Source: Spirochaetaceae bacterium
GTDB taxonomy: Bacteria > Spirochaetota > Spirochaetia > DSM-2461
Assembly: GCA_051531975.1 (NCBI GenBank)
Contig: JAOPTT010000009.1
Coordinates: forward strand, 416,001-480,000
Length of the DNA stretch: 64,000 bases
Direction of reading: 5' to 3'
The first letter of the stretch is position 1. Each line of letters opens with the position of its first letter. A program made the position numbers and the translations under genes. The notes below the pieces were generated by a model, which was not told the origin of the DNA, ran no database searches, and saw only the letters and a list, made by a program, of their open reading frames with translations. Positions 2,490 through 13,541 of the stretch are shown here, one piece after another.

Positions 2490-2875
2490 AAGATTATATA
2501 TTAAGTAGTCAGTACTATTTTATTAAAGTTTTAATTATTGACGAAGTTCTATACACAAAGCGAAATCTGTCAAAAGAGTTTCGAGATATAGGTTGTTTTG
2601 TTTTTTCAGCTAATAGTGGAGCAGATGCTATAGATAAAATTAAAAAGTACAAACCAGATATTATAACAATAAACCGTGACCTAACCGATATGACAATGGA
2701 ATGCCTAATAAACCAAGTTTTAACTTTTGTTAGTAGAGCTTCTACTAAAATAATATTAGTGACTACTAAAAAAGATGACCAGCCTAAACTACCCCCATAT
2801 ATTGATGGTTTTATCAGTCTTCCAATATCAAAGCAAGATCTAGAAAACCTTGTTAATAGGAATTGTTATCGGTAA
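2486..2875 (+). CDS. Single-domain receiver (CheY-like), atypical/pseudo-receiver
   Basis: KVLIIDE...ANSGADAIDKIKKYKPDIITINRDL...KIILVT; phosphoacceptor position appears to be N and the conserved Lys position L (FISLP). Confidence 0.75.
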   Translation: MKDYILSSQYYFIKVLIIDEVLYTKRNLSKEFRDIGCFVFSANSGADAIDKIKKYKPDIITINRDLTDMTMECLINQVLTFVSRASTKIILVTTKKDDQPKLPPYIDGFISLPISKQDLENLVNRNCYR

Positions 2876-3105
2876 AGGCTAGAAATATAGGTTAAATATT
2901 CGTCAAAAATACGAAAAAAATAAAATAAATTGTGTTTGTAGATAAAACCCCCTATAATTTCATATTAGGAACTCAATATAAAGAGTCTTTTAACATTATT
3001 CATTATAGTTATGCTATTACTTGCTTTAGATTAACTATTGATGAAAAAAAGATAACTCTAGATTTATCATTAGTTATCTATCTTTAGTAGGGATAAAATT
3101 GAATT

Positions 3106-3939
3106 ATGGAAAACAGAGGATTTTTTAGTAAAGGAATTATAGAATTAAAAGAATCTAATTATAAAAGTATTGAGGATATTACATTTTCAAAACTTTTGTT
3201 TTTAGTATTAAACAGACAGATTGGGATAGAGAAGTCAATAATAATAGATTTTACCCCCTCTTTTCCAATCTCTCTTAAACCTGAATATCAATATGAAATT
3301 TTTATTTCAAAACATCTAAAATATTTTAAGGATTTTTTAACAGAAATGGGTCTAGAAAGCATTTCATATTCAAATATTGACTTTGAATTACCTGAAGATG
3401 ATACTACAAAAATCGTTAAAAATGTAAAAAAGACATTACTATTATCGGCATTTAGTTTTTATAAACTAATTGACTCCTATGTTAATAAACATGTAAATAG
3501 TTCCTACCTAATTCATCAATTGCATGACAATACGGTATGCGAATCACAACATATTGTTGATAAGAGTGGATTGGCCTTTCCAGACTATTATGAGCCACTA
3601 TCAGGTGAGCTTTTTAATGAAAAACTAAATGACTTTAATTACGAATTATCTCTAGTATATAAAAATTATACATTAACCGATAAAGGTGAACTTATAAAAA
3701 AAGAGTTTATAAAAAAAGCTGTTTACGATTGCATTAACTGTAATCTATGTAATAAAAATTGTCCTTTAAATATCTATCCACAATTCTATTATCACTATTT
3801 AGAAGCCGATTTTATTGAGGATGTAGAAAAGCTTCTTATCACAAAATGTAATACCTGTGGAATATGTTCATTTGTATGCCCATCTAATATTCCAATTACC
3901 CAAAAGATATCAGAATATTTGAATGAGAGGGAGGAGTAA
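3106..3939 (+). CDS. Truncated RnfC/NqrA-like subunit with C-terminal 2x[4Fe-4S] domain
   Basis: CINCNLCNKNCP and CNTCGICSFVCPSNIP as in the RnfC C-terminus; only 277 aa; first gene of an rnf/nqr-like operon. Confidence 0.75.
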   Translation: MENRGFFSKGIIELKESNYKSIEDITFSKLLFLVLNRQIGIEKSIIIDFTPSFPISLKPEYQYEIFISKHLKYFKDFLTEMGLESISYSNIDFELPEDDTTKIVKNVKKTLLLSAFSFYKLIDSYVNKHVNSSYLIHQLHDNTVCESQHIVDKSGLAFPDYYEPLSGELFNEKLNDFNYELSLVYKNYTLTDKGELIKKEFIKKAVYDCINCNLCNKNCPLNIYPQFYYHYLEADFIEDVEKLLITKCNTCGICSFVCPSNIPITQKISEYLNEREE

Positions 3940-4853
3940 TGGATATACATAAAAGAAACGATCTATTGCTAATAAGTAGCTTGGCTTTATTAAACGTTGG
4001 GTCATTATTAAAATATGGATATAAAAGAATCGTTTTAATATCAATAATAATTATTATAGCTAAACTATTTGAAATAGTTGTGAGGGGCATTACAAAAAGT
4101 AATCGAAATTTCTCACCAATATGGATCTTACTTATATCCCCTCTGATATTACCTCCACTACTACCGACGTATATGGTTGTTAGTTCAGTAATTTTTGGTT
4201 TATTAATTGGAGTAGTTTTTTTTGGAGGAGAAGGTCGAGAAATAATATCGCCTATTGCTCTTATTTGGGGTTTTGCAGCACTAAGTTTTCCTGTTATATA
4301 TAATCAGAGTTGGGTATTCCCATTTCCAGGTATATCTCTAGATATCTCTAGGGATTTAGCAACCATGCCACTATTTGAAAACCATATTGAGTTTGTTAAA
4401 ACTTCTAATATAGATATCTATAATTTTCTTACAGGTAATATCCCGGGAACTCCAGGATCTGCAATACCAATATTGATTATTATAATTGGTATTATATTTG
4501 CTATATTTAAAATAATAGATCTGAAGCTTTGTCTTACATTTATTATTTCAACTATTCTAATATCAACATTTATAGTTTATGGAAGTTTTGTAGATTCTTT
4601 AAAATATCTGCTTTCTGGAAATTTCCTTCTAGTGGCTTTTATTATTTTACCTTTAAAAAAACATGGACCTAAAACAACTGGTGGAAGTTATATTATTGGG
4701 ATTTTAGGTGCAATACTTCTTTTAACCATAAATAGATTCTCAAGTTATTTTGATGGTTCACTGTTTACTGTTTTGATTCTTAATATATTCATTCCTATTA
4801 TTGATGATGCTGTTCTTAAATTTAAAGTGATCAAGAGGGGGAAATATGCTTAA
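3939..4853 (+). CDS. RnfD/NqrB family membrane subunit (divergent)
   Basis: Polytopic; LILPPLLP, FFGGEG..ISP, FLTGNIPGTPG, PKTTGG, ILNIFIPIID; operon position. Confidence 0.8.
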   Translation: MDIHKRNDLLLISSLALLNVGSLLKYGYKRIVLISIIIIIAKLFEIVVRGITKSNRNFSPIWILLISPLILPPLLPTYMVVSSVIFGLLIGVVFFGGEGREIISPIALIWGFAALSFPVIYNQSWVFPFPGISLDISRDLATMPLFENHIEFVKTSNIDIYNFLTGNIPGTPGSAIPILIIIIGIIFAIFKIIDLKLCLTFIISTILISTFIVYGSFVDSLKYLLSGNFLLVAFIILPLKKHGPKTTGGSYIIGILGAILLLTINRFSSYFDGSLFTVLILNIFIPIIDDAVLKFKVIKRGKYA

Positions 4854-5433
4854 AGATCTAAAAATGATTCTGTTTCTTGTAATACTCTCTTCTACTTCTA
4901 TTTTACTTTTGGCATATGTTAATACTATTTATTTAGGTTTTGAAGGGGAAAGATCATTAGATCTATATAGACTCATTATGGATAAATATCAAATTTCCTA
5001 CGGTGATGATGTATTGGATACTTTTAGCAGTAATTTTAATATAATAACCAGAGGGGATAGAAAATATTTTGTTTCTCAAACTAATAGATCAGGTTCTGTT
5101 GTTTTAGTAAGAGAAGGCCCTGGTTTATGGAGTATATTAGAACTTCTGATTATTGTTCAAAGTGATCTTAAATCTCTAGAATCGATTACAGTATTATCCC
5201 AGGGAGAGACTCCTGGTCTTGGTGGGAGAGTTACCGAGAGGGAATTTTTGGATCAATTCGAAAATATTTTAGTTAGACCCCAATTATCCATTGTTAAAAG
5301 AGCAAAAAAAGATAATGAAGTTGATGCAATTTCTGGAGCTACAGCTACAAGTAAAGGTGTCGAAGATATAATAAACATTGCCATTTCATTTTTAGACAAA
5401 GATATTAGGGAGGAACTAAATGTCCCAGAATAA
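4846..5433 (+). CDS. RnfG/NqrC family FMN-binding subunit
   Basis: N-terminal TM, GPGLWS, GETPGLGG, VDAISGATATSKGV (intact SGAT flavinylation motif). Confidence 0.9.
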   Translation: MLKDLKMILFLVILSSTSILLLAYVNTIYLGFEGERSLDLYRLIMDKYQISYGDDVLDTFSSNFNIITRGDRKYFVSQTNRSGSVVLVREGPGLWSILELLIIVQSDLKSLESITVLSQGETPGLGGRVTEREFLDQFENILVRPQLSIVKRAKKDNEVDAISGATATSKGVEDIINIAISFLDKDIREELNVPE

Positions 5434-6028
5434 AGTTGATATACTAAAGGATGGTATTTGGGCTAATAATCCAATTTTTAGAATGGCCTTAGGTCTGTGT
5501 TCTACTTTAGCTGTTACTAATTTACTTTTAAATACACTTATTATGGCAGCTGCTGTAACAGTAACATTGATTTTAAACTCAATAATAGTTTCTGCTTTAA
5601 GAAATATAATCCCTGAAAAGATAAGAATGATTAGTTATATGATTATTACTTCAGCACTGGTAATAATTATAGATATGGTTATTAAGATCTACTACCCGGA
5701 GATTAGTAAACAACTAGGACCATATGTTGCCCTAATTATTACTAACTGTATTATTATGGGTAGAGCAGAGGCTTTCGCAATAAATAATGGAGTGGTAGAT
5801 AGCTTTTTAGATGCAGTTTCTATAGGTATTGGGTACTCTTTATCTCTAATTGCCTTAGCGATTGTTCGGGAACTTTTAGGATTTGGAACACTTCTTGGAT
5901 ACACAGTAACCAAGGATCTTTTTGCTCCATTTAATCTTCTAAGTATTCCTCCCGGAGCCTTTTTTATGCTGGGAATATTTATTTTAATTGTTAATACTAT
6001 AACTAATAGAAAAGGAGGCCAGGAATGA
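5420..6028 (+). CDS. RnfE/NqrD family membrane subunit
   Basis: NNPIFRMALGLCSTLAVT, LIITNCIIMGRAEAFA, PPGAFF; both conserved Cys present. Confidence 0.93.
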   Translation: MSQNKVDILKDGIWANNPIFRMALGLCSTLAVTNLLLNTLIMAAAVTVTLILNSIIVSALRNIIPEKIRMISYMIITSALVIIIDMVIKIYYPEISKQLGPYVALIITNCIIMGRAEAFAINNGVVDSFLDAVSIGIGYSLSLIALAIVRELLGFGTLLGYTVTKDLFAPFNLLSIPPGAFFMLGIFILIVNTITNRKGGQE

Positions 6029-6600
6029 ATTTTTTACTGATTCTTTTTGTTTCAATGATTACTGGGAATATAGCATTAACCTACTTTTTAGGAATGTGTC
6101 CTTTTGTTTCAATGTCAAAAAAAATTGAAGTTGCTACTGGTATGGGATTAGCTGTTACACTTGTTATGGTGATTACAGCTGGAGCCAACTATTTAATAAA
6201 TACTTACATCCTAAAACCAATGGGTCTTGAGTTTTTAAGCTTTCTTGTTTTTATAGTTACAATTGCAACACTAGTTCAAATATTAGAGATCTATATAGAT
6301 CGGTATGCACCTCTTCTTTATGCATCATTTGGTATATTTTTACCTCTAATAACTGTTAACTGCTCAATTTTAGGTGTCTCTTTATTAATGAACCTACGAT
6401 CTTATACCTTAGCAGAGACACTTGTGTTTTCTTTAGGTTCTGGTCTTGGTTGGTTATTAGCTATTATTACAATGGGAGCTTTAAGAAGAAGGTTGGCATT
6501 TTCAACCCCACTTAAAGGTTTTGGCGATACTGGTATTACTGCAATTTTGGCAGGTATAATGGCTATGGCTTTTATGGGATTTTCGGGGGTAGGTAGATGA
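6025..6600 (+). CDS. RnfA/NqrE family membrane subunit
   Basis: NIALTYFLGMCPF, GMGLAVTLVM, GIFLPLITVNCSILG, AGIMAMAFMGFSG; both conserved Cys present. Confidence 0.93.
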   Translation: MNFLLILFVSMITGNIALTYFLGMCPFVSMSKKIEVATGMGLAVTLVMVITAGANYLINTYILKPMGLEFLSFLVFIVTIATLVQILEIYIDRYAPLLYASFGIFLPLITVNCSILGVSLLMNLRSYTLAETLVFSLGSGLGWLLAIITMGALRRRLAFSTPLKGFGDTGITAILAGIMAMAFMGFSGVGR

Positions 6601-7670
6601 TTCTAAATGCTCTTCTTTTTATAAATATATTTTCTGTTGTTATATGTTTAATAATTATCTTCTTAGATAGGGTTATATCAAATTATGGTATTTTAAAGGT
6701 AAATATAAACGACGAAGAGACTTTTGAAGTTAATGGTGGGAAACCCCTTTCTAAAGAGCTTATACATAATAAAATACTTATTCCTTCAGCATGTGGTGGT
6801 AAGGGAACCTGTGGCTTTTGTAAGTTAAGGGTTGTAGAAGGTGGAGGAACTGTTTTACCTCTAGAGAGGACTATCTTAGATAGAAAAGAGATCTCTAATG
6901 GTTTTAGGCTTTCTTGTCAGGTAAAAGTTCGAGAGGACTTAAAAATATATATTCCAGACGAGTATTTTAATATAAAAGAGTATAATGCCATTGTTACAAC
7001 TTCTGATATGGTAACATCTGATATTAAAAAAATAAATTTAAAATTACTTGAACCAACGGATATAACTTTTAAACCAGGGCAGTATGTCCAGGTCCACTTC
7101 GGAGTTGGAAAAAACAGTGAAATTAGAGCATACTCAATATCTTCTAGCCCTGATGTTCACGATAGTGTTGAACTTAATATTAAAAAAATACCGGAAGGTT
7201 TAGGTTCTGGATTTCTACATAAATTAAAAGTTAATGATAAAATTACTATTTCAGGTCCATATGGAGACTTCTACCTTAAAGAATCAAAGGCAAAAATAAT
7301 ATGTGTCTCTGGAGGAGTTGGATTAGCACCATTAAAATCTATTGCAGCATATTGGGAGAATAATTGTCCAGATAGGATAATTGACTTTTATTATGGAGCA
7401 AGAACAATAGCAGACTTATATGATCATGAACTCTTTCTTGATTATGAAAGAAAATATGAGAACTTTAATTATTACCCTGCATTGTCAGATGCAGATGATA
7501 ATTGGACTGGTGCTACAGGTTTTATTCATAACATTATTAAACAACATCTTGATACTGATGGAGAAAAAGAAGGTTATCTTTGTGGTCCACCAATTATGAT
7601 AGATGCATCTATAAAAGTATTAATAGAAAAGGGAGTCCACATTGAAAAGATCTGGTATGACAAGTTTTAA
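6597..7670 (+). CDS. nqrF: NqrF-like NADH-oxidising subunit (TM anchor, [2Fe-2S], FAD/NAD-binding FNR domain)
   Basis: N-terminal TM; IPSACGGKGTCGFC...RLSCQVKV; RAYSISS; ISGPYGDF; GGVGLAP; YLCGPPIMI; terminal YDKF. Confidence 0.88.
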   Translation: MILNALLFINIFSVVICLIIIFLDRVISNYGILKVNINDEETFEVNGGKPLSKELIHNKILIPSACGGKGTCGFCKLRVVEGGGTVLPLERTILDRKEISNGFRLSCQVKVREDLKIYIPDEYFNIKEYNAIVTTSDMVTSDIKKINLKLLEPTDITFKPGQYVQVHFGVGKNSEIRAYSISSSPDVHDSVELNIKKIPEGLGSGFLHKLKVNDKITISGPYGDFYLKESKAKIICVSGGVGLAPLKSIAAYWENNCPDRIIDFYYGARTIADLYDHELFLDYERKYENFNYYPALSDADDNWTGATGFIHNIIKQHLDTDGEKEGYLCGPPIMIDASIKVLIEKGVHIEKIWYDKF

Positions 7671-8988
7671 AATAACTAAGTATATAATCTTTATTGTAGC
7701 TATACTATTTTTTAATAGTTGCTTAGTTAAAAAAAATCCAACACTACTTATCGGTACATCAAATGCTAAAGTAAGCGAGGAGACAAGAACATGTCTTGAG
7801 TGTCATACCGAGGAGATGCCTGGTATTGTAAATCAGTGGGAAGATGGTTCCCATGGTAAGGAAGGTATCGGGTGTTTTGAATGTCATGGTGCAGAACCTA
7901 CCGATGTAGATGCAATGGAACATAATGGTTTTACTATTGCTATTATTGTTTCTCCTGCGGATTGTGGAGTATGCCATGAGTTAGAGGCATCTCAATTTTT
8001 AAGCTCACATCACTCTAAAGCTGGTGAAGTTTTAGGTTCTTTGGATAACTACTTAGGTGAAATTGTTGAGGGTGGTCCTGCATCAATTTCAGGATGCCAA
8101 GCCTGTCACGGTTCCTATGTTGAGGTTGAAGAAAATGGTGAACTTAGTGCTGCTACATGGCCAAACTTTGGTGTAGGTCGGGTTAATCCTGATGGTACTT
8201 CTGGTTCCTGTGCATCTTGTCACTCAAGGCATTCAATGAAAAAATCTCAAGCAAGAGACCCTGATACATGTGGTAAATGTCACCTTGGTCCAGATCATCC
8301 TCAGATAGAGATATATAGAAGTTCTAAACATGGGATGATGTACCTAAATAACAAGGATGATATGAACATGGATAGCGATCAGTGGATACCGGGAGAAGAT
8401 TATAACGCAGCTCCAACCTGTGCAACCTGTCATCTATCAGAAACTAAAAATCTTCCTGTTACTCATGATATTGGTAGCAGACTTTCGGTAAATATAAGGG
8501 CACCGATCTCTTTCCCTACAGAAAATGCTGAGGAAAAACGTGATAGTATGAAGGATGTTTGTCTAAGTTGTCATGGAACTGATTTTGTTGATAACTTTTA
8601 TAAACAGTACGATGCTGGAATTGACCTATATAATAATAAGTTTGCAATACCTGCAACAGAAGTCATGAATGAACTAAAAGCAGATGGACTAGTTGATCCT
8701 ATTCAGTTTAATGAAGAGATTGAGTGGGCATATTGGCATCTATGGCATCATGAAGGTCGAAGAGCAAGAAATGGATATGCAATGTTAAGTCCTGATTATG
8801 TTCAATGGCATGGAATGTATGAGGTAGCTGAACGATTTTACTTTGAACTTTTACCTGAAGCAGAGCACTATAAACCTGGTATAATGGATGAAATAATGTC
8901 TAGACCAGAACATCGATGGTTTAGTGGTGATCTTGATGAATCAACACGAGAGGAAGTAAAAAGAATTGAGACACAAAAATATAAATAG
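7642..8988 (+). CDS. Octaheme cytochrome c of the hydroxylamine oxidoreductase (HAO) family, probable lipoprotein (alternative start ATG 7657)
   Basis: Eight CxxCH motifs (CLECH, CFECH, CGVCH, CQACH, CASCH, CGKCH, CATCH, CLSCH); HAO hallmarks CHLGPDHPQIEIYRSSKHG, APTCATCH, WHHEGRRAR; N-terminal hydrophobic stretch ending FFNSC. Confidence 0.92.
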   Translation: MKRSGMTSFKITKYIIFIVAILFFNSCLVKKNPTLLIGTSNAKVSEETRTCLECHTEEMPGIVNQWEDGSHGKEGIGCFECHGAEPTDVDAMEHNGFTIAIIVSPADCGVCHELEASQFLSSHHSKAGEVLGSLDNYLGEIVEGGPASISGCQACHGSYVEVEENGELSAATWPNFGVGRVNPDGTSGSCASCHSRHSMKKSQARDPDTCGKCHLGPDHPQIEIYRSSKHGMMYLNNKDDMNMDSDQWIPGEDYNAAPTCATCHLSETKNLPVTHDIGSRLSVNIRAPISFPTENAEEKRDSMKDVCLSCHGTDFVDNFYKQYDAGIDLYNNKFAIPATEVMNELKADGLVDPIQFNEEIEWAYWHLWHHEGRRARNGYAMLSPDYVQWHGMYEVAERFYFELLPEAEHYKPGIMDEIMSRPEHRWFSGDLDESTREEVKRIETQKYK

Positions 8989-9913
8989 ACTGTTTAGTGC
9001 TTTAGCTTCAATGAAGCTAGCACTTATTTTACTCATCGTAATAGCAGTAATCTCTGGATTATCAACGTTTGTAATCCAGGGTGAAAGTAATGAGTATTAT
9101 ATCGAAAATTATCCTCTTTTGGGATCTCTGTTTATTAAAATTGGATTTACTAATTTTTTTAGATCCATGTTTTTTATAGCACTTATGGGACTGTTTTTTA
9201 TCAATCTTTCAATGTGTACTATTAAAAGATTATATAAAGAAATAACAGGGGCAATTAAATTAAGACTAGGGCCTGATTTTATTCATATCGGATTATTAAT
9301 TCTTATCGTTGGTGGTAGCATTAACGTTCTTTTAGAACAAGAAGCATCTGTTATGTTATCCATTGGAGATGAGATCTCTGTAGGTGATTATATAGTAACA
9401 CTAAATGACTTCGAGTTTCTTAAGTATGAAAATGGTGCCCCAAAAGATTGGATATCTAATTTAACTATAAAAAAAACTGATGGGGAAATCGTTAGGGATA
9501 ACTTTGAAATAGAGGTTAATAAACCAGTTCGATTTAGTGGTTTTAGTATTTTCCAAAGTAGATATAACGTTATTAATTTTGCCCAGTTAGAATCAGAAGA
9601 TAAACAAATTCATATTGTAAAAAGTGGCTACATGTTTGATAGTAGGGGAAAAAGATATATTTTAGACGATGTAGAACCTGGTAAAAGTGCACTTTTTCAA
9701 GTTGTTGATGAGGAAAACCATACTGATTACTACAGGTATAATATTGGAAGTATTTTAGGTGGATTTAAAGTTCTTGATACTTCGAGGGAGTTGTCTTCAG
9801 GGTTATTAATTAAAAGGGAACCGGCATATATTATGAATTATATTGCACTTGTTTTAATGTTAGCTGGTTTTTTAATCGCATATATACAAAAAATTGGAGT
9901 TAAAGAGAAATGA
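8966..9913 (+). CDS. resB: Cytochrome c biogenesis protein ResB/CcsB (System II)
   Basis: LASMKLALILL, F...F..LMGLFFINLSMCT, GPDFIHIGLLILIVG, IEVNKPVRFSGFSIFQS. Confidence 0.88.
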   Translation: MRHKNINRLFSALASMKLALILLIVIAVISGLSTFVIQGESNEYYIENYPLLGSLFIKIGFTNFFRSMFFIALMGLFFINLSMCTIKRLYKEITGAIKLRLGPDFIHIGLLILIVGGSINVLLEQEASVMLSIGDEISVGDYIVTLNDFEFLKYENGAPKDWISNLTIKKTDGEIVRDNFEIEVNKPVRFSGFSIFQSRYNVINFAQLESEDKQIHIVKSGYMFDSRGKRYILDDVEPGKSALFQVVDEENHTDYYRYNIGSILGGFKVLDTSRELSSGLLIKREPAYIMNYIALVLMLAGFLIAYIQKIGVKEK

Positions 9914-10680
9914 TATTACAAATTGCAACAATAATACTTATACCACTAGTAATATTTCAGATGGTTACTGTTTTTAGAGGTAAAACAGAAAAACTAACAA
10001 CACCTATTGTTCTATTATCTGGAGTACTTATTTTAATTACGTTAATAATTCGTTCTTTTCAAATAGGTTTTCCCGCTCTAACAAATACATTTGAAGCACT
10101 GCTATTTTTTGCATGTTCAATACTTATAGTACTAGGGATATATGGAATTAAGTCCAAAGGTAACAATGTTATAAATTTTGGTTCTACTATTGTTGCATTA
10201 ATTTTTCTTTTAATGAGTTCATCCCCATTAACTACTAATGAATTAAATCCTCCAATTCCTGCACTTCAATCAAATTGGTTATTATTACATGTTAGTTTTT
10301 CATTTATTGGGCAAGCTTTTTTTGTAGTATCGTTTATTGCTGCAATTGCATCTTTAGTAAGTAAAACCAAGGTAGAATATTATAGAAAGTTGGTATTAAA
10401 CAGCATTATTATAGGTTATCCAATTTATACAGCCGGAGCTATTATTTTTGGAGCTATATGGGCATCCTACGCATGGGGATCTTTCTGGAGCTGGGACCCT
10501 AAAGAGACTTGGGCACTTATTACATGGTTTGTATATACCATTATATTACATGGTCGAAAAACCAAATATGTCACTGAAGTTCGATTATCCTGGTTATCTA
10601 TTATAGGTTTTGCAGTCTCGTTATTTACGTTTTTTGGGGTAAATTATCTACTGTCTAGTCTACATAGTTATGCTGGTTAA
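9910..10680 (+). CDS. ccsA: Cytochrome c biogenesis heme-attachment protein CcsA/ResC (System II)
   Basis: PALQSNWLLLHV, WWD motif GAIWASYAWGSFWSWDPKETWALITW, terminal SLHSYA. Confidence 0.95.
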   Translation: MILQIATIILIPLVIFQMVTVFRGKTEKLTTPIVLLSGVLILITLIIRSFQIGFPALTNTFEALLFFACSILIVLGIYGIKSKGNNVINFGSTIVALIFLLMSSSPLTTNELNPPIPALQSNWLLLHVSFSFIGQAFFVVSFIAAIASLVSKTKVEYYRKLVLNSIIIGYPIYTAGAIIFGAIWASYAWGSFWSWDPKETWALITWFVYTIILHGRKTKYVTEVRLSWLSIIGFAVSLFTFFGVNYLLSSLHSYAG

Positions 10681-10714
10681 ACTTTAATTTTTAATACAAC
10701 GCAGATTTCATTTT

Positions 10715-10755
10715 AAAAAAAAGAGTCAATGTATAAGCCTATACATTGACTTTTT
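10715..10755 (+). terminator. Intrinsic (probably bidirectional) terminator ending the redox operon
   Basis: Perfect 12-bp stem AGTCAATGTATA (10724-10735)/TATACATTGACT (10740-10751), 4-nt loop, A-tract before and T-tract after. Confidence 0.7.
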
Positions 10756-10797
10756 AATATAGCAACGTTATTCTTGTTATAGGGTAGGGGGGTATAC
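10746..10797 (+). promoter_or_regulatory. sigma70 promoter of csoR-copA plus probable CsoR operator
   Basis: TTGACT (10746-51), 17 bp, TATTCT (10769-74); G-tract site TATAGGGTAGGGGGGTATA just before the csoR start resembles CsoR-family G/C-tract operators. Confidence 0.6.
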
Positions 10798-10800
10798 TAT

Positions 10801-11097
10801 ATGGCAGAGAAAACAGTAATCAGAAAGGCTCATCATACATATAAAGATAAACAAAAAATGATAAATAGAATGAGCCGGATTGAAGGACAGATAAGGGGTA
10901 TATCAAAAATGATAGAAGAAGATGTCTATTGTGACGATATATTGCATCAGTTTAAAAGTGTTGAATCAGCGATTAAAGGTGTTAAATCCCAACTATTAGA
11001 AGCACATATGAAAAGCTGTGTTGTGAATCAGATACAAAATGGAAGAGTTGAAGTTATAGATGAACTTCTAAATACCATTAATCAAATGAGTAAGTAG
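10801..11097 (+). CDS. csoR: Copper-sensing repressor CsoR
   Basis: RMSRIEGQIRGISKMIEEDVYCDDILHQ...LLEAHMKSC: Cys-His-Cys Cu(I) ligands; upstream of copA. Confidence 0.92.
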   Translation: MAEKTVIRKAHHTYKDKQKMINRMSRIEGQIRGISKMIEEDVYCDDILHQFKSVESAIKGVKSQLLEAHMKSCVVNQIQNGRVEVIDELLNTINQMSK

Positions 11098-11108
11098 GTA
11101 GGTAGGAT

Positions 11109-13541
11109 ATGGAAATTATACAACTTAATATACAAGGTATGACCTGTGCATCATGTGTTGCACATGTAGAAAAAGGGATTAAAAAAACTACTGGCATCGA
11201 TATGGCCAGTGTAAATTTAGCTACAGAAAAAGCTACAATTAGCTATGATCCAGATAAAACCAATGTAGACGATATAGTTAAAAGTGTTTTTAATGCTGGT
11301 TATAGTGCCAACATTCCAAATAAAGATAACGAAGACGAAGAAGCAAAAGAAAAAAGTAAACAATTAAAAAGACTAAGAAATCAAACAATAATTTCAGCTT
11401 GTCTGAGTGCACCCTTAGTGTTAGCAATGTTTGCTGGAATATTCAAAATTGAAGCATTAATGTTTTTACATATTCCACTAGTACAGTTTCTTTTAGCAAC
11501 TCCAGTACAGTTCTGGATTGGTGCAAAGTTTTACAAAGGTGGTTGGAAGTCGATTAAAGCAGGTAGTCCTGGGATGGATGTTTTAGTTGCTCTTGGTACG
11601 TCGTCAGCATACTTTTTTAGTATTTTTAACGGCTTTATAGCAAAAAATATAGGTATTGAGACAAATGGGCTCTATTTTGAAGCTTCTGCAATAATTATTA
11701 CTCTAGTTTTATTAGGTAAATATTTAGAGAGTAATGCTAAGGGTAAAACTTCAGAAGCTATTAAAAAGTTGATGGGTCTACAACCTAAATTTGCAAGTAT
11801 TGTAAAAGACGGAGAAGTAATTGAGGTACCAATAGCAGATGTTGTCCCTGGTGATATTGTTTTTATTAAACCTGGGGAGAGAATCCCAGTTGACGGTTTA
11901 GTTACTGATGGTAGTACAGCAATAGATGAGAGTACAATAACAGGTGAAAGTATGCCTGTGGAAAAAAGAGAAGGGGATAAGGTTGTTAGTGGAACTATAA
12001 ATAGTTACGGCTCTATTAAGTTCAAAGCAGAACATGTAGGTAAAGACTCAGTACTTTCTAGAATTATAGCAATTGTAGAAGAAGCTCAAGGTTCTAAAGC
12101 TCCTATTCAGAAACTTGCTGATAAAGTGGCGTCAATTTTTGTTCCTGTTGTATTGATAATTGCTGCAGTTACATTTTTAATATGGTGGTTAATAATAGGT
12201 TCTTTAACAACTGCAATAATATCTGCTGTAGCTGTATTAGTCATCGCTTGTCCATGTGCCTTAGGTCTAGCTACTCCAACAGCAATTATGGTTGGAACTG
12301 GTAAAGGTGCCGAAAGGGGTATACTAATTAAAAATGGCGAGATACTGCAATCTGCTGGTAAGATTACAACAATAATATTGGATAAAACTGGTACAGTAAC
12401 ATTAGGTAAACCAGAAATGCAGGACATATATCCATTAAATGGTAGTCTGGATAAAGATGGTATTTTACAGTTAGCTGGAAGTTTAGAGCAAAACTCTGAA
12501 CACCCTTTAGCAAAAGCAGTTGTAGATGCTGCAAAAGATAAAAAATTAGAATTACAAACTGTAGAGAACTTTATATCAATACCTGGGAAGGGTATTTCCG
12601 CAACCTATCAAAATATAGAATATCTAATTGGAACAGAGAAACTAATGGAAGAAAATAGTATTCCAACCGTTGCCTATATAGAAAAAAAGTCAGAGCTTGA
12701 ATCTATGGGTAATACTGTAGTTATTCTCGCAACTAAAACTGATGTAATAGCACTCATAACTATAGCAGATAGTATAAAAGAGACCTCAAAAGAAGGTGTT
12801 CAGTTATTAGAAGATTTAGGTCTAAATGTATACATGATAACTGGGGACAATAAAAGAACTGCACTATCAATTGCAAAAAAGGCTGGAATAACTAAGGTTT
12901 TAGCAGAAGTTCTACCTGAAGGTAAAGCAAACGAAGTTACTAAACTGCAAGAAAAAGGTGAAGTAGTTGCAATGGTTGGAGATGGTGTTAATGATGCGCC
13001 AGCCTTAGCAGTTGCAAATACTGGAATTGCAATGGGTCACGGTTCAGATATTGCAATGGAGTCTGCAGATATAACATTAATGCGTGGGGACTTAAGGGAG
13101 ATAGCAGCAGCTATTTTGCTCTCTAGAAAAACTATGACTAAAATTAAGCAGAACCTATTTTGGGCATTTTTCTATAACTCCATTGGTATCCCTTTTGCTG
13201 CTTTAGGTTTTTTAAACCCAATAATTGCAGGTGCTGCCATGGCTTTTAGTTCCGTATCTGTTGTTTCTAACTCACTTAGTCTAAGAAATTTTAAAATGAA
13301 AAAGTCGCCGAAACAAGATACTGAGTCTAATAATAACAGTGTAACAATCACAGTAAATGGTATGAGTTGTGGTAAATGTAAAGCAAATGTGGAAAACACA
13401 TCTAAGGCGTTAGATATTGTTAAAGATGCAGTTGTAGACTTAGAAAAAAAAGAGGCTGTTATTACATTTAATGATAATAACGATATGGATATTGATAGAG
13501 TTAAACTAGCAATTAAAGAGGCTGGTTTTAGCCCTGTGTAA
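11109..13541 (+). CDS. copA: Cu(I)-exporting P1B-type ATPase with N- and C-terminal HMA domains
   Basis: GMTCASC, TGES, ACPCALGLATP, DKTGT, SEHPL, GDGVNDAP, YN and MxxSS Cu+ signatures, C-terminal GMSCGKC. Confidence 0.95.
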   Translation: MEIIQLNIQGMTCASCVAHVEKGIKKTTGIDMASVNLATEKATISYDPDKTNVDDIVKSVFNAGYSANIPNKDNEDEEAKEKSKQLKRLRNQTIISACLSAPLVLAMFAGIFKIEALMFLHIPLVQFLLATPVQFWIGAKFYKGGWKSIKAGSPGMDVLVALGTSSAYFFSIFNGFIAKNIGIETNGLYFEASAIIITLVLLGKYLESNAKGKTSEAIKKLMGLQPKFASIVKDGEVIEVPIADVVPGDIVFIKPGERIPVDGLVTDGSTAIDESTITGESMPVEKREGDKVVSGTINSYGSIKFKAEHVGKDSVLSRIIAIVEEAQGSKAPIQKLADKVASIFVPVVLIIAAVTFLIWWLIIGSLTTAIISAVAVLVIACPCALGLATPTAIMVGTGKGAERGILIKNGEILQSAGKITTIILDKTGTVTLGKPEMQDIYPLNGSLDKDGILQLAGSLEQNSEHPLAKAVVDAAKDKKLELQTVENFISIPGKGISATYQNIEYLIGTEKLMEENSIPTVAYIEKKSELESMGNTVVILATKTDVIALITIADSIKETSKEGVQLLEDLGLNVYMITGDNKRTALSIAKKAGITKVLAEVLPEGKANEVTKLQEKGEVVAMVGDGVNDAPALAVANTGIAMGHGSDIAMESADITLMRGDLREIAAAILLSRKTMTKIKQNLFWAFFYNSIGIPFAALGFLNPIIAGAAMAFSSVSVVSNSLSLRNFKMKKSPKQDTESNNNSVTITVNGMSCGKCKANVENTSKALDIVKDAVVDLEKKEAVITFNDNNDMDIDRVKLAIKEAGFSPV

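Follow-up and report, generated by a model that had tools for sequence, protein, structure and literature searches.

The window examined here, a 64,000-nucleotide stretch of a Spirochaetaceae genome (G000; positions C9:416001-480000), contains a nine-gene operon in which an Nqr-like membrane complex is encoded together with an octaheme cytochrome c of the hydroxylamine oxidoreductase (HAO) family and the genes for its maturation. Judged from the related sequences compared below, the operon is a real, conserved cassette of single origin that is found again in scattered anaerobes, and a new arrangement of known kinds of parts. The evidence tips slightly in favor of a quinone-independent path in which electrons would pass from NADH to the NqrF-like subunit (F'), through the NqrD- and NqrE-like subunits (D'/E') to the flavin mononucleotide (FMN) of the periplasmic NqrC-like subunit (C'), and from there to the HAO. 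Papers are cited by PMC number, each for the excerpt that concerns the point made.

Composition of the operon

Nine open reading frames (ORFs) on the + strand span 3106-10680. Six Nqr/Rnf-type subunits in the order nqrA-F (A' to F') are followed by an octaheme HAO-type lipoprotein and then by ResB and CcsA (Pfam, NCBIfam).

3106..3939, + strand: A', slimmed RnfC/NqrA homologue of 277 residues with two CxxCxxCxxxCP motifs (C209..P220, C248..P259)
3939..4853, + strand: B', membrane subunit of the NqrB/RnfD family, 304 residues (NQR2_RnfD_RnfE, PF03116, E 1e-35)
4846..5433, + strand: C', NqrC/RnfG-like, 195 residues, with an N-terminal transmembrane helix and FMN_bind (PF04205, E 7.6e-15)
5420..6028, + strand: D', NqrD/RnfE-like (PF02508, E 1.6e-55; NqrD model NF006777, 210 bits, cut-off 235)
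6025..6600, + strand: E', NqrE/RnfA-like (PF02508, E 4.7e-49; nqrE model TIGR01940, 196.6 bits, cut-off 247.6)
6597..7670, + strand: F', short NqrF of 357 residues with a transmembrane helix, Fer2 (2Fe-2S), FAD_binding_6 and NAD_binding_1 (nqrF model TIGR01941, 278.7 bits, cut-off 295)
7642..8988, + strand: epsilon-Hao-type octaheme cytochrome c (PF13447), predicted lipoprotein with lipobox FFNSC and Cys27
8966..9913, + strand: short ResB/CcsB of System II cytochrome c biogenesis (PF05140, E 1.1e-33, 117.2 bits, over the Pfam cut-off)
9910..10680, + strand: CcsA, System II heme handling/lyase (PF01578, E 2.5e-37, 129 bits, over the Pfam cut-off)

An earlier reading made from the sequence alone (the sequence-only reading) had described nine genes with overlapping junctions, and its coordinates were matched exactly by the ORF list and the junction sequences. 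It had named the first six genes rnfC'-rnfD'-rnfG-rnfE-rnfA-nqrF, which was set aside, the order being plainly nqrA-F. The junctions are TAATG at 3937-3941 and ATGA at 6025, 6597 and 9910, and the remaining four are overlaps of 8, 14, 29 and 23 nucleotides, assuming TTG starts at 7642 and 8966. Each of the nine starts is preceded by a purine-rich, GGAGG-like stretch, and the overlaps together with these stretches form a pattern typical of translational coupling. Within approximately 7.6 kb lie the genes for the donor module, the acceptor enzyme and the maturation system. Pfam and NCBIfam searches of the nine ORFs found no rnfB, no NapC, NrfH or NrfD and no small cytochrome, in agreement with the sequence-only reading.

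All six subunits scored under the curated cut-offs of the Rnf as well as the Nqr models of NCBIfam. The Nqr-model scores of D', E' and F' are listed above, and those of the other three subunits were 75.7 bits for NqrC (cut-off 255), 61.5 for NqrB (414) and 30 for NqrA (450). The complex had been called a Rnf/Nqr hybrid, and these scores, beneath the cut-offs of both model sets, mark it as a real intermediate between the two. Relative to V. cholerae NqrF, F' is missing approximately 37 residues (172-208 of the chain). Its identity to a canonical NqrF is 32%, and it has a large family of short homologues of 356-365 residues. Both cluster-ligating Cys residues are present in D', as aligned with RnfE of 9eri, and in E', as aligned with NqrE of 7xk3. 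C', for which NqrC models were the best scoring, carries the flavinylation motif D160-A-I-S-G-A-T166, which was retained in 15 of 15 aligned homologues and, as DxxSGA[TS], in 11 of 11 members of the clade described below.

As established from the solved complexes, Nqr and Rnf pass electrons outward to the FMN of NqrC/RnfG on the periplasmic side, from which they return via the FMN of NqrB/RnfD (PMC8238504). The return path appears to be broken in the window's complex because B' has lost its flavinylation site. In an alignment with canonical NqrB and RnfD, the column of the flavinylated Thr holds Glu in B' and Asp in four related loci (L106, L110, L115, and L213), and B' has no GE[TS]S or TDP motif either. 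The subunit aligned to residues 132-407 of V. cholerae NqrB only, leaving the approximately 130 N-terminal residues of NqrB without a counterpart. When 42 B sequences were compared, the flavinylation motif was missing in 10 of 10 HAO-linked modules, whereas [ST]xATP[LM] was kept in 28 of 28 clearly aligned sequences from non-HAO modules; the comparison also held three ambiguous sister-group sequences and one that was misaligned. By these alignments, the outward half of the path has been preserved, and the break in the return half coincides exactly with the clade in which a periplasmic heme enzyme gene adjoins the module.

On the evidence of its sequence motifs and predicted structure, A' is a cofactor-poor NqrA body combined with the clusters of RnfC. 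The last 70 residues alone are recognizable by sequence and are most like the C-terminus of RnfC: Fer4 families of Pfam matched residues 187-262 only, in the manner of the RnfC C-terminal 2x[4Fe-4S], and the rnfC model TIGR01945 gave 52.8 bits (cut-off 246). No NADH/FMN domain was detected in A' by Pfam, PF01512 and PF13375 giving no match. The AlphaFold model (predicted local distance difference test score, 85.3) aligned from end to end with RnfC chains (Z 11.9-13.3, 248-260 residues) and with NqrA chains (Z 9.7-10.1), and RnfC and NqrA chains made up its top nine Foldseek matches. The two CxxCxxCxxxCP motifs were invariant across 19 aligned sequences. Homologues were few, with three found by word search and approximately nine full-length representatives among 2631 profile matches, most of which covered the Fe-S part only; a metagenome scan with the A' alignment gave 594 pattern matches, none of them confirmed, as A' evolves too fast for this method.

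The product of the seventh gene bears out the octaheme HAO-family cytochrome of the sequence-only reading. It has PF13447 and eight CxxCH motifs (C51, C78, C108, C152, C190, C210, C260, and C307), and its nearest solved relatives are all HAO-family enzymes. The best of these was 4qo5 (E 2e-49 with the single sequence, 2e-71 with the family profile), followed by the classical HAOs. We take 4qo5, whose PDB title is 'Hypothetical multiheme protein', to be the octaheme protein of Ignicoccus hospitalis. The cytochrome had also been called membrane-anchored, which holds for a predicted lipid anchor (lipobox FFNSC, Cys27) and not for a helix. In place of the cross-linking Tyr it carries the signature M381-x7-W389, present in 12 of 12 sequences compared, and the active-site-region residues D218-H219 and Y254 are invariant in the family. 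A Trp, with a Met eight residues before it, replaces the cross-linking Tyr of oxidative HAOs in epsilon-Hao (PMC8940962, citing Haase et al. 2017), and characterized Tyr-less HAOs reduce nitrite, nitric oxide (NO) and hydroxylamine and have negligible oxidative activity (PMC8042395). By analogy with these enzymes, the eight CxxCH motifs, the homology to HAO and the loss of the Tyr suggest that the window's HAO is of the reductive (epsilon) type and would reduce nitrite or hydroxylamine.

These residues bear on two other explanations of the operon. In reverse operation, the HAO would oxidize hydroxylamine or a similar donor and an ion gradient would drive electrons uphill to NAD+. Machines of the Rnf/Nqr type are reversible in principle, as has been established for Rnf (PMC12174285), but the replacement of the Tyr by Trp, the negligible oxidative activity of Tyr-less HAOs (PMC8042395) and the degeneracy of B', a subunit implicated in ion coupling, make this direction highly improbable. 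The same outward wire could also serve other chemistry, with the octaheme protein reducing sulfite, metal ions or an extracellular acceptor, for example, or acting as a periplasmic relay. Multiheme folds are promiscuous, the cytochrome gave weaker MtrC/MtrF-like and c554 matches in Pfam, and nitrate reductase was not found in the genome; on the other hand, D218-H219 and Y254 are invariant, the epsilon-Hao signature is present, the solved relatives are HAO-family enzymes throughout, and the Tyr-less HAOs that were tested reduce nitrite, NO and hydroxylamine (PMC8042395). We consider a different chemistry improbable and retain an outward path to a reductive HAO as the preferred reading.

ResB and CcsA form a System II pair, and the operon carries its own maturation system, as had been claimed. 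CcsA was slightly under the cut-off of the CcsB model TIGR03144 (182.4 against 187.6 bits). The Trp-rich stretch WGSFWSWDPKETW, a motif of this system, is visible in the translated sequence.

Conservation and origin of the nqrF-HAO linkage

With more than 7870 matches, the HAO family is a very large one, and among 80 species-representative HAO loci only L013, from a Spirochaetia metagenome-assembled genome (MAG), has D'E'F' directly before HAO. At other HAO loci, a NapC/NirT tetraheme gene comes right after HAO (six gammaproteobacterial loci; e.g., L035, Pfam E 1e-52), a nine-heme/cytochrome b fusion is present (five loci), or HAO is on its own among unrelated neighbors. Since HAO elsewhere adjoins NapC/NirT or a heme-rich fusion, the Nqr-like module stands where the usual donor would be. 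The Rnf genes in the neighborhood of HAO in L022 were treated as unlinked, being approximately 7 kb off, on the other strand and of an Rnf type without NqrF. The Spirochaetia MAG with L013 has three Rnf/Nqr-type loci.

Orthologous HAO loci with upstream DNA in species-representative genomes had D'E'F'-HAO in four of four cases. As a reverse probe, a metagenome scan with the short-NqrF alignment yielded 80 loci, which were screened by tblastn. Twenty-four of them encode an NqrF at least 50% identical to F'; HAO lies directly downstream in 16, and the contigs of the remaining eight end 0-579 nucleotides past nqrF. L122, with an NqrF of 47% identity, also has HAO, and none of the 55 other loci with an F subunit below 50% does. 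ResB and CcsA follow HAO in L106, L111, L112, and L115, and in L105 ResB is followed by the contig end. Short nqrF is found directly before the HAO gene in all 19 relatives with readable upstream DNA. A match was present in 5 of 36 same-family genomes and in 0 of 3 same-genus genomes, a patchy distribution that fits the portable cassette suggested by the sequence-only reading.

Two trees were inferred by quick searches without bootstraps, and both place the window on a rather long branch. The first, with 99 rows of HAO sequences, unites the 19 linked HAOs with L212, whose contig starts at HAO, in one clade with an SH-like approximate likelihood ratio test (SH-aLRT) value of 99; the other 79 are unlinked. 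In a 62-row tree of NqrD plus NqrE rooted with Rnf, the HAO-linked modules form one 14-row clade (SH-aLRT 99) on the Nqr side. Its sister is a small group that also has A' subunits with Fe-S motifs, and a separate 36-row clade holds A-less nqrBCDEF modules, including the canonical Agarivorans NQR on a long branch. By synteny and phylogeny, the linkage on which the sequence-only reading had relied is not due to chance and arose once.

Several related loci differ in detail. In contig C148 of genome G456 (L214:2239-3307), the HAO orthologue is split into two neighboring matches whose frames differ (query residues 85-223 and 225-442); this frameshift is a pseudogene or an assembly error in a cassette that is otherwise complete. 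A NirD/L-type siroheme decarboxylase-like gene (AsnC_trans_reg2 plus a NirdL-like helix-turn-helix domain) lies just upstream of the cassette at L106:4939-5991 and may reflect heme supply by an alternative pathway; the window's genome gave a sub-threshold match only to a domain of this type. At L133:928-7036, on a metagenome contig, a full RnfC (RnfC_N, Complex1_51K, and 2x4Fe-4S) and RnfD/G/E/A-like genes are accompanied by a short NqrF in place of RnfB and then by a Rex-like regulator, and this locus branches near the base of the Nqr side in the D plus E tree.

Two modules of the sister group, both on metagenome contigs, have other exported partners. At L124:2294-8468, a module with an Fe-S A' is followed by a 152-residue lipoprotein with an FSGAT flavinylation-type motif and by an MsrA with a signal peptide. 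At L125:5029-12727, a module with a 699-residue A' adjoins a hexaheme lipoprotein and an erythrin-like gene on the opposite strand. Both support the general logic of an outward module feeding an exported partner. We tentatively propose, with confidence that falls a little short of even, a previously undescribed class of 'outward-facing' Nqr derivatives, of which this cassette would be the clearest member. The electron loop would be cut open at NqrB, and the periplasmic FMN of NqrC would be the direct donor to terminal reductases that are lipoproteins, namely epsilon-Hao in the window and, in the sisters, an exported MsrA or a hexaheme cytochrome.

Proposed electron path, genome context and flanking DNA

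The genome (5.46 Mb, approximately 31% G+C, 29 contigs, 98.5% complete) offers few partners for the cytochrome. The HAO is its sole ORF with at least four CxxCH motifs. A 3-CxxCH ORF on contig C14 was rejected as a second multiheme protein, as it is antisense inside a 934-residue ORF and has no family match. The operon's CcsA is the single PF01578 gene of the genome, no second cytochrome c maturation system is present, and there is one ApbE. No alternative electron donor to the cytochrome is visible in the genome. No canonical Nqr was found in the genome, which has two more loci of the Rnf type. One is a canonical rnfCDGEAB operon, which includes an rnfB, and the other, without rnfC, has the order cydA-cydB-rnfD-G-E-A-short rnfB. 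The latter, on contig C6 at approximately 369100-374700 (L010:4112-9724), consists of a short cydA (384 residues), cydB, rnfD, rnfG, rnfE, rnfA, and a 116-residue rnfB fragment; with its terminal oxidase tied to a partial Rnf, this cluster is a counterpart of the HAO case. Hcp and HemB are also encoded in the genome.

In the path that we favor, short NqrF would oxidize NADH through flavin adenine dinucleotide (FAD) and then 2Fe-2S, and electrons would cross the membrane via the Cys4-ligated center between the NqrD- and NqrE-like subunits to the covalent FMN of the NqrC-like subunit on the periplasmic face, C' being the subunit that the single genomic ApbE would flavinylate. With the return via B' broken, they would pass to the lipid-anchored, epsilon-Hao-type octaheme cytochrome, which would reduce nitrite, NO or hydroxylamine as its small nitrogen oxide substrate, with ammonium as the probable product. 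Maturation of this cytochrome, the sole multiheme cytochrome c detected in the genome, would fall to the ResB and CcsA of the operon. We infer the hand-off from FMN to heme, the direction of electron flow and the substrate. A quinone-free wire to the HAO is favored because the genome has no other donor, the module stands in the place of a NapC-type donor, the cassette brings its own maturation genes and its distribution is patchy, as if by transfer.

Ordinary co-regulation would account for the operon differently. The complex would be an NADH:(mena)quinone oxidoreductase like Na+-NQR, the HAO would be fed from quinol by other means, and the shared operon would serve co-expression only. The grouping of D'/E' with the canonical Agarivorans NQR on the Nqr side of the tree speaks for this, as do cydAB and one UbiA-family (MenA-like) gene in the genome, the latter with 105 bits against MenA-type cut-offs of 102-555 (TIGR00751, 58.6 against 102). 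However, the genome search gave MenD at 55.7 bits, under its cut-off of 244, and did not find MqnA; NapC, NrfH, CymA and NrfD are absent from the operon, and no other ORF in 5.46 Mb has four or more CxxCH motifs. Moreover, B' lacks the N-terminal region, the FMN-bearing Thr and both further motifs of NqrB, and the six subunits lie beneath the Nqr cut-offs. Co-regulation alone is therefore unlikely.

Several observations weigh against the quinone-independent outward path. The substrate is drawn from relatives only. Nitrate reductase was not found in the genome, whose sole molybdopterin enzyme is the formate dehydrogenase FdhA, and nitrite would thus have to come from outside. The cydAB genes and the MenA-like prenyltransferase make some quinone use possible. 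Outward flow combined with proton consumption in the periplasm would dissipate the membrane potential unless an ion is pumped, and B', the subunit implicated in pumping, is degenerate; without pumping, the outward flow would cost membrane potential, so that the system would be a sink or detoxifier and not an energy source. All eight cluster Cys residues of A' are kept in 7 of 7 sequences of the HAO clade and 4 of 4 of the sister group, and a purely outward wire gives these conserved cytoplasmic Fe-S clusters no role. Finally, by tblastn boundaries, a spacer of 396-517 nucleotides separates nqrF and hao in approximately 17 of 23 related loci. In the four of these loci that were examined, it holds an ORF of approximately 150 residues for a diiron erythrin-like protein with the pattern E, ExxH, E, ExxH and no signal peptide, which hints at an additional cytoplasmic acceptor or branch.

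L106:11046-11507, L115:11064-11507, L102:11064-11498 and L213:1251-1721: rubrerythrin/erythrin-like ORFs between nqrF and hao

The last two points could be explained by a mainly cytoplasmic function, in which electrons would loop back to the 4Fe-4S clusters of A' and be passed on to an acceptor in the cytoplasm, for instance the erythrin-like diiron protein, for detoxification of peroxide, O2 or NO, the HAO being a side branch or buffer. The invariant cluster motifs of A', the erythrin-like ORFs and the matching spacers are in keeping with such a function, but the window and five other loci (L105, L110, L122, L130, and L210) have no room for the diiron ORF, HAO is present in 19 of 19 readable members of the clade, and B' lacks the FMN site that a return path requires. 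A mainly cytoplasmic role is accordingly of low probability, and electron delivery to the periplasmic HAO remains the preferred reading.

The DNA on either side of the nine genes contains two features.

2876..3105, + strand: upstream intergenic region of 230 nucleotides, presumed promoter/operator, with nested inverted repeats at 3005-3085
10724..10751, both strands: hairpin of 12 bp with an A-run and a T-run on its flanks, terminator-like either way

The repeats at 3005-3085 are imperfect and nested and lie 20-100 nucleotides 5' of the first gene (for example, AAAAAAAGATAACT / AGTTATCTATCTTT, spaced 14 nucleotides); they could act as an operator or be chance in AT-rich DNA. A promoter scan gave 47 matches against a shuffle mean of 45.4, which is not above the shuffles, and hence no promoter was assigned. 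An Rfam search of 2700-11000 gave no family at the gathering score. The terminator that the sequence-only reading had placed at the end of the block corresponds to the 12-bp hairpin; it is taken to work in both directions because the terminator scanner listed it on the - strand while TTTTT trails it on the + strand. Metatranscriptome contigs from the same sample cover only 8198-8392 (six differences), 9157-9307, and 9334-9484, bridge no junction and may stem from DNA carry-over.

Directly upstream of the operon, at 990-2875, a 499-residue ORF without a Pfam family and with one weak, sub-cut-off NCBIfam match overlaps a 129-residue, receiver-only response regulator by 4 nucleotides. Past the terminator, at 10801-13541, are genes for a metal-sensing repressor of the CsoR/RicR type and for CopA, a copper-exporting P-type ATPase that has two HMA domains; the two are an ordinary copper-efflux pair. 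In annotated relatives, the flanking genes on both sides are not part of the conserved cassette.

Significance and comparison with known systems

The cassette bears on the question of how Tyr-less HAOs receive electrons in organisms without NrfH or NapC. Tyr-less hao genes rank with the most abundant genes of the nitrogen cycle in certain anoxic systems (PMC8940962), and Nqr-like complexes of strict anaerobes are widespread, their acceptor being unknown (PMC5924567). Since donor, acceptor and maturation genes are held in one cassette, both questions could be tested directly by heterologous expression. If the proposed path is correct, fermenters could reoxidize NADH on nitrite, NO or hydroxylamine without quinones, by a hitherto unrecognized route of ammonification or detoxification in sediments. 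If the 'outward-facing' class exists, anaerobes without quinones or other cytochromes could acquire NADH-driven respiration or detoxification of nitrite, NO or hydroxylamine horizontally, and the cassette would point to the kind of acceptor used by the widespread Nqr-like complexes of anaerobes.

The cassette also offers natural intermediates for the origin of Na+-NQR from Rnf. In the scheme proposed by Reyes-Prieto et al. (2014), RnfB was lost and NqrF was gained first, and NqrA then evolved out of RnfC as the sites for NAD, FMN and Fe-S disappeared (PMC4014512). A', in which the NAD/FMN part is lost and the Fe-S motifs are kept, and the L133 locus look like surviving intermediates of this scheme. 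If the 'outward-facing' class is real, A' would be a living intermediate of the RnfC-to-NqrA transition that was proposed (PMC4014512).

The window's complex shares with Na+-NQR the A-F gene order, an NqrF with a transmembrane helix, 2Fe-2S, FAD and an NADH site, the Cys4 center of NqrD/E and the flavinylation motif of NqrC, and D'/E' group with Nqr and not with Rnf. It differs in that A' has two 4Fe-4S motifs, whereas NqrA has none, and in that B' is of Rnf size and is without the Thr for covalent FMN, the GE[TS]S and TDP motifs and the N-terminal region that NqrB has. F' is approximately 50 residues shorter, none of the six subunits reaches its curated cut-off, there is no evident quinone site, and the operon runs on into the cytochrome and maturation genes. 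With Rnf (RnfCDGEAB) it has in common a homologous membrane core and an A' that is structurally closest to RnfC and carries Fe-S motifs of the RnfC type. In contrast to Rnf, RnfB is absent from the nine ORFs and is encoded only in a separate operon on contig C18, A' has no detected NADH/FMN domain, and NADH would enter via NqrF. A multiheme cytochrome, MmcA, is encoded alongside the Rnf-type complex of Methanosarcina acetivorans (PMC12174285), whereas the window's cytochrome is an HAO-family enzyme and not MmcA.

The A-less nqrBCDEF operons of anaerobes such as Clostridium ultunense and Pseudothermotoga lettingae, whose acceptor is unknown (PMC5924567), resemble the window's operon in having a short NqrF, an NqrB of Rnf size and an acceptor that is either not quinone or not known, and they belong to the same larger clade of modules. 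Those operons have no A subunit or cytochrome and keep the flavinylation motif of NqrB (28/28), whereas the window's operon has A', a degenerate B' and an acceptor encoded within the operon. The cytochrome shares with epsilon-Hao proteins (HaoA of Campylobacterota; HAOr Kustc0458 of Kuenenia; 4qo5) the eight CxxCH motifs, the HAO fold and the Trp with its Met eight residues before in place of Tyr. The partner of these relatives is a NapC/NirT tetraheme protein, a heme-rich cytochrome b fusion or nothing, and that of Kustc0458 is a diheme cytochrome (PMC8042395); the partner in the window is an Nqr-like complex instead.

The 'NQR/RNF-like' systems of Meheust et al. (2021), found mainly in Actinobacteria and the candidate phyla radiation (CPR) and in some cases with iron transporters, have NqrB/RnfD (PF03116) fused to a NAD-binding domain (PF00175) in one protein (PMC8238504). 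The idea is the same, namely a partial NQR/RNF apparatus through which electrons move in one direction, from NAD(P)H in the cytosol to an FMN domain outside it (PMC8238504). Membership in this class was rejected for the window's complex, as the two domains are divided between separate proteins, PF03116 being on B' and PF00175 on F', and the operational rule of that study, NqrF in the cluster, would count the locus as plain NQR (PMC8238504). A literature search, with subscription journals and the supplementary cluster tables of PMC8238504 (which could list such loci under 'NQR') outside its scope, found no paper on an Nqr-like operon joined to an HAO-family gene. Judged by the features that define each of those groups, the system is not Na+-NQR, Rnf, an A-less nqrBCDEF complex or a fusion system of the kind described by Meheust et al.; it would work like the first half of Na+-NQR grafted onto epsilon-Hao.

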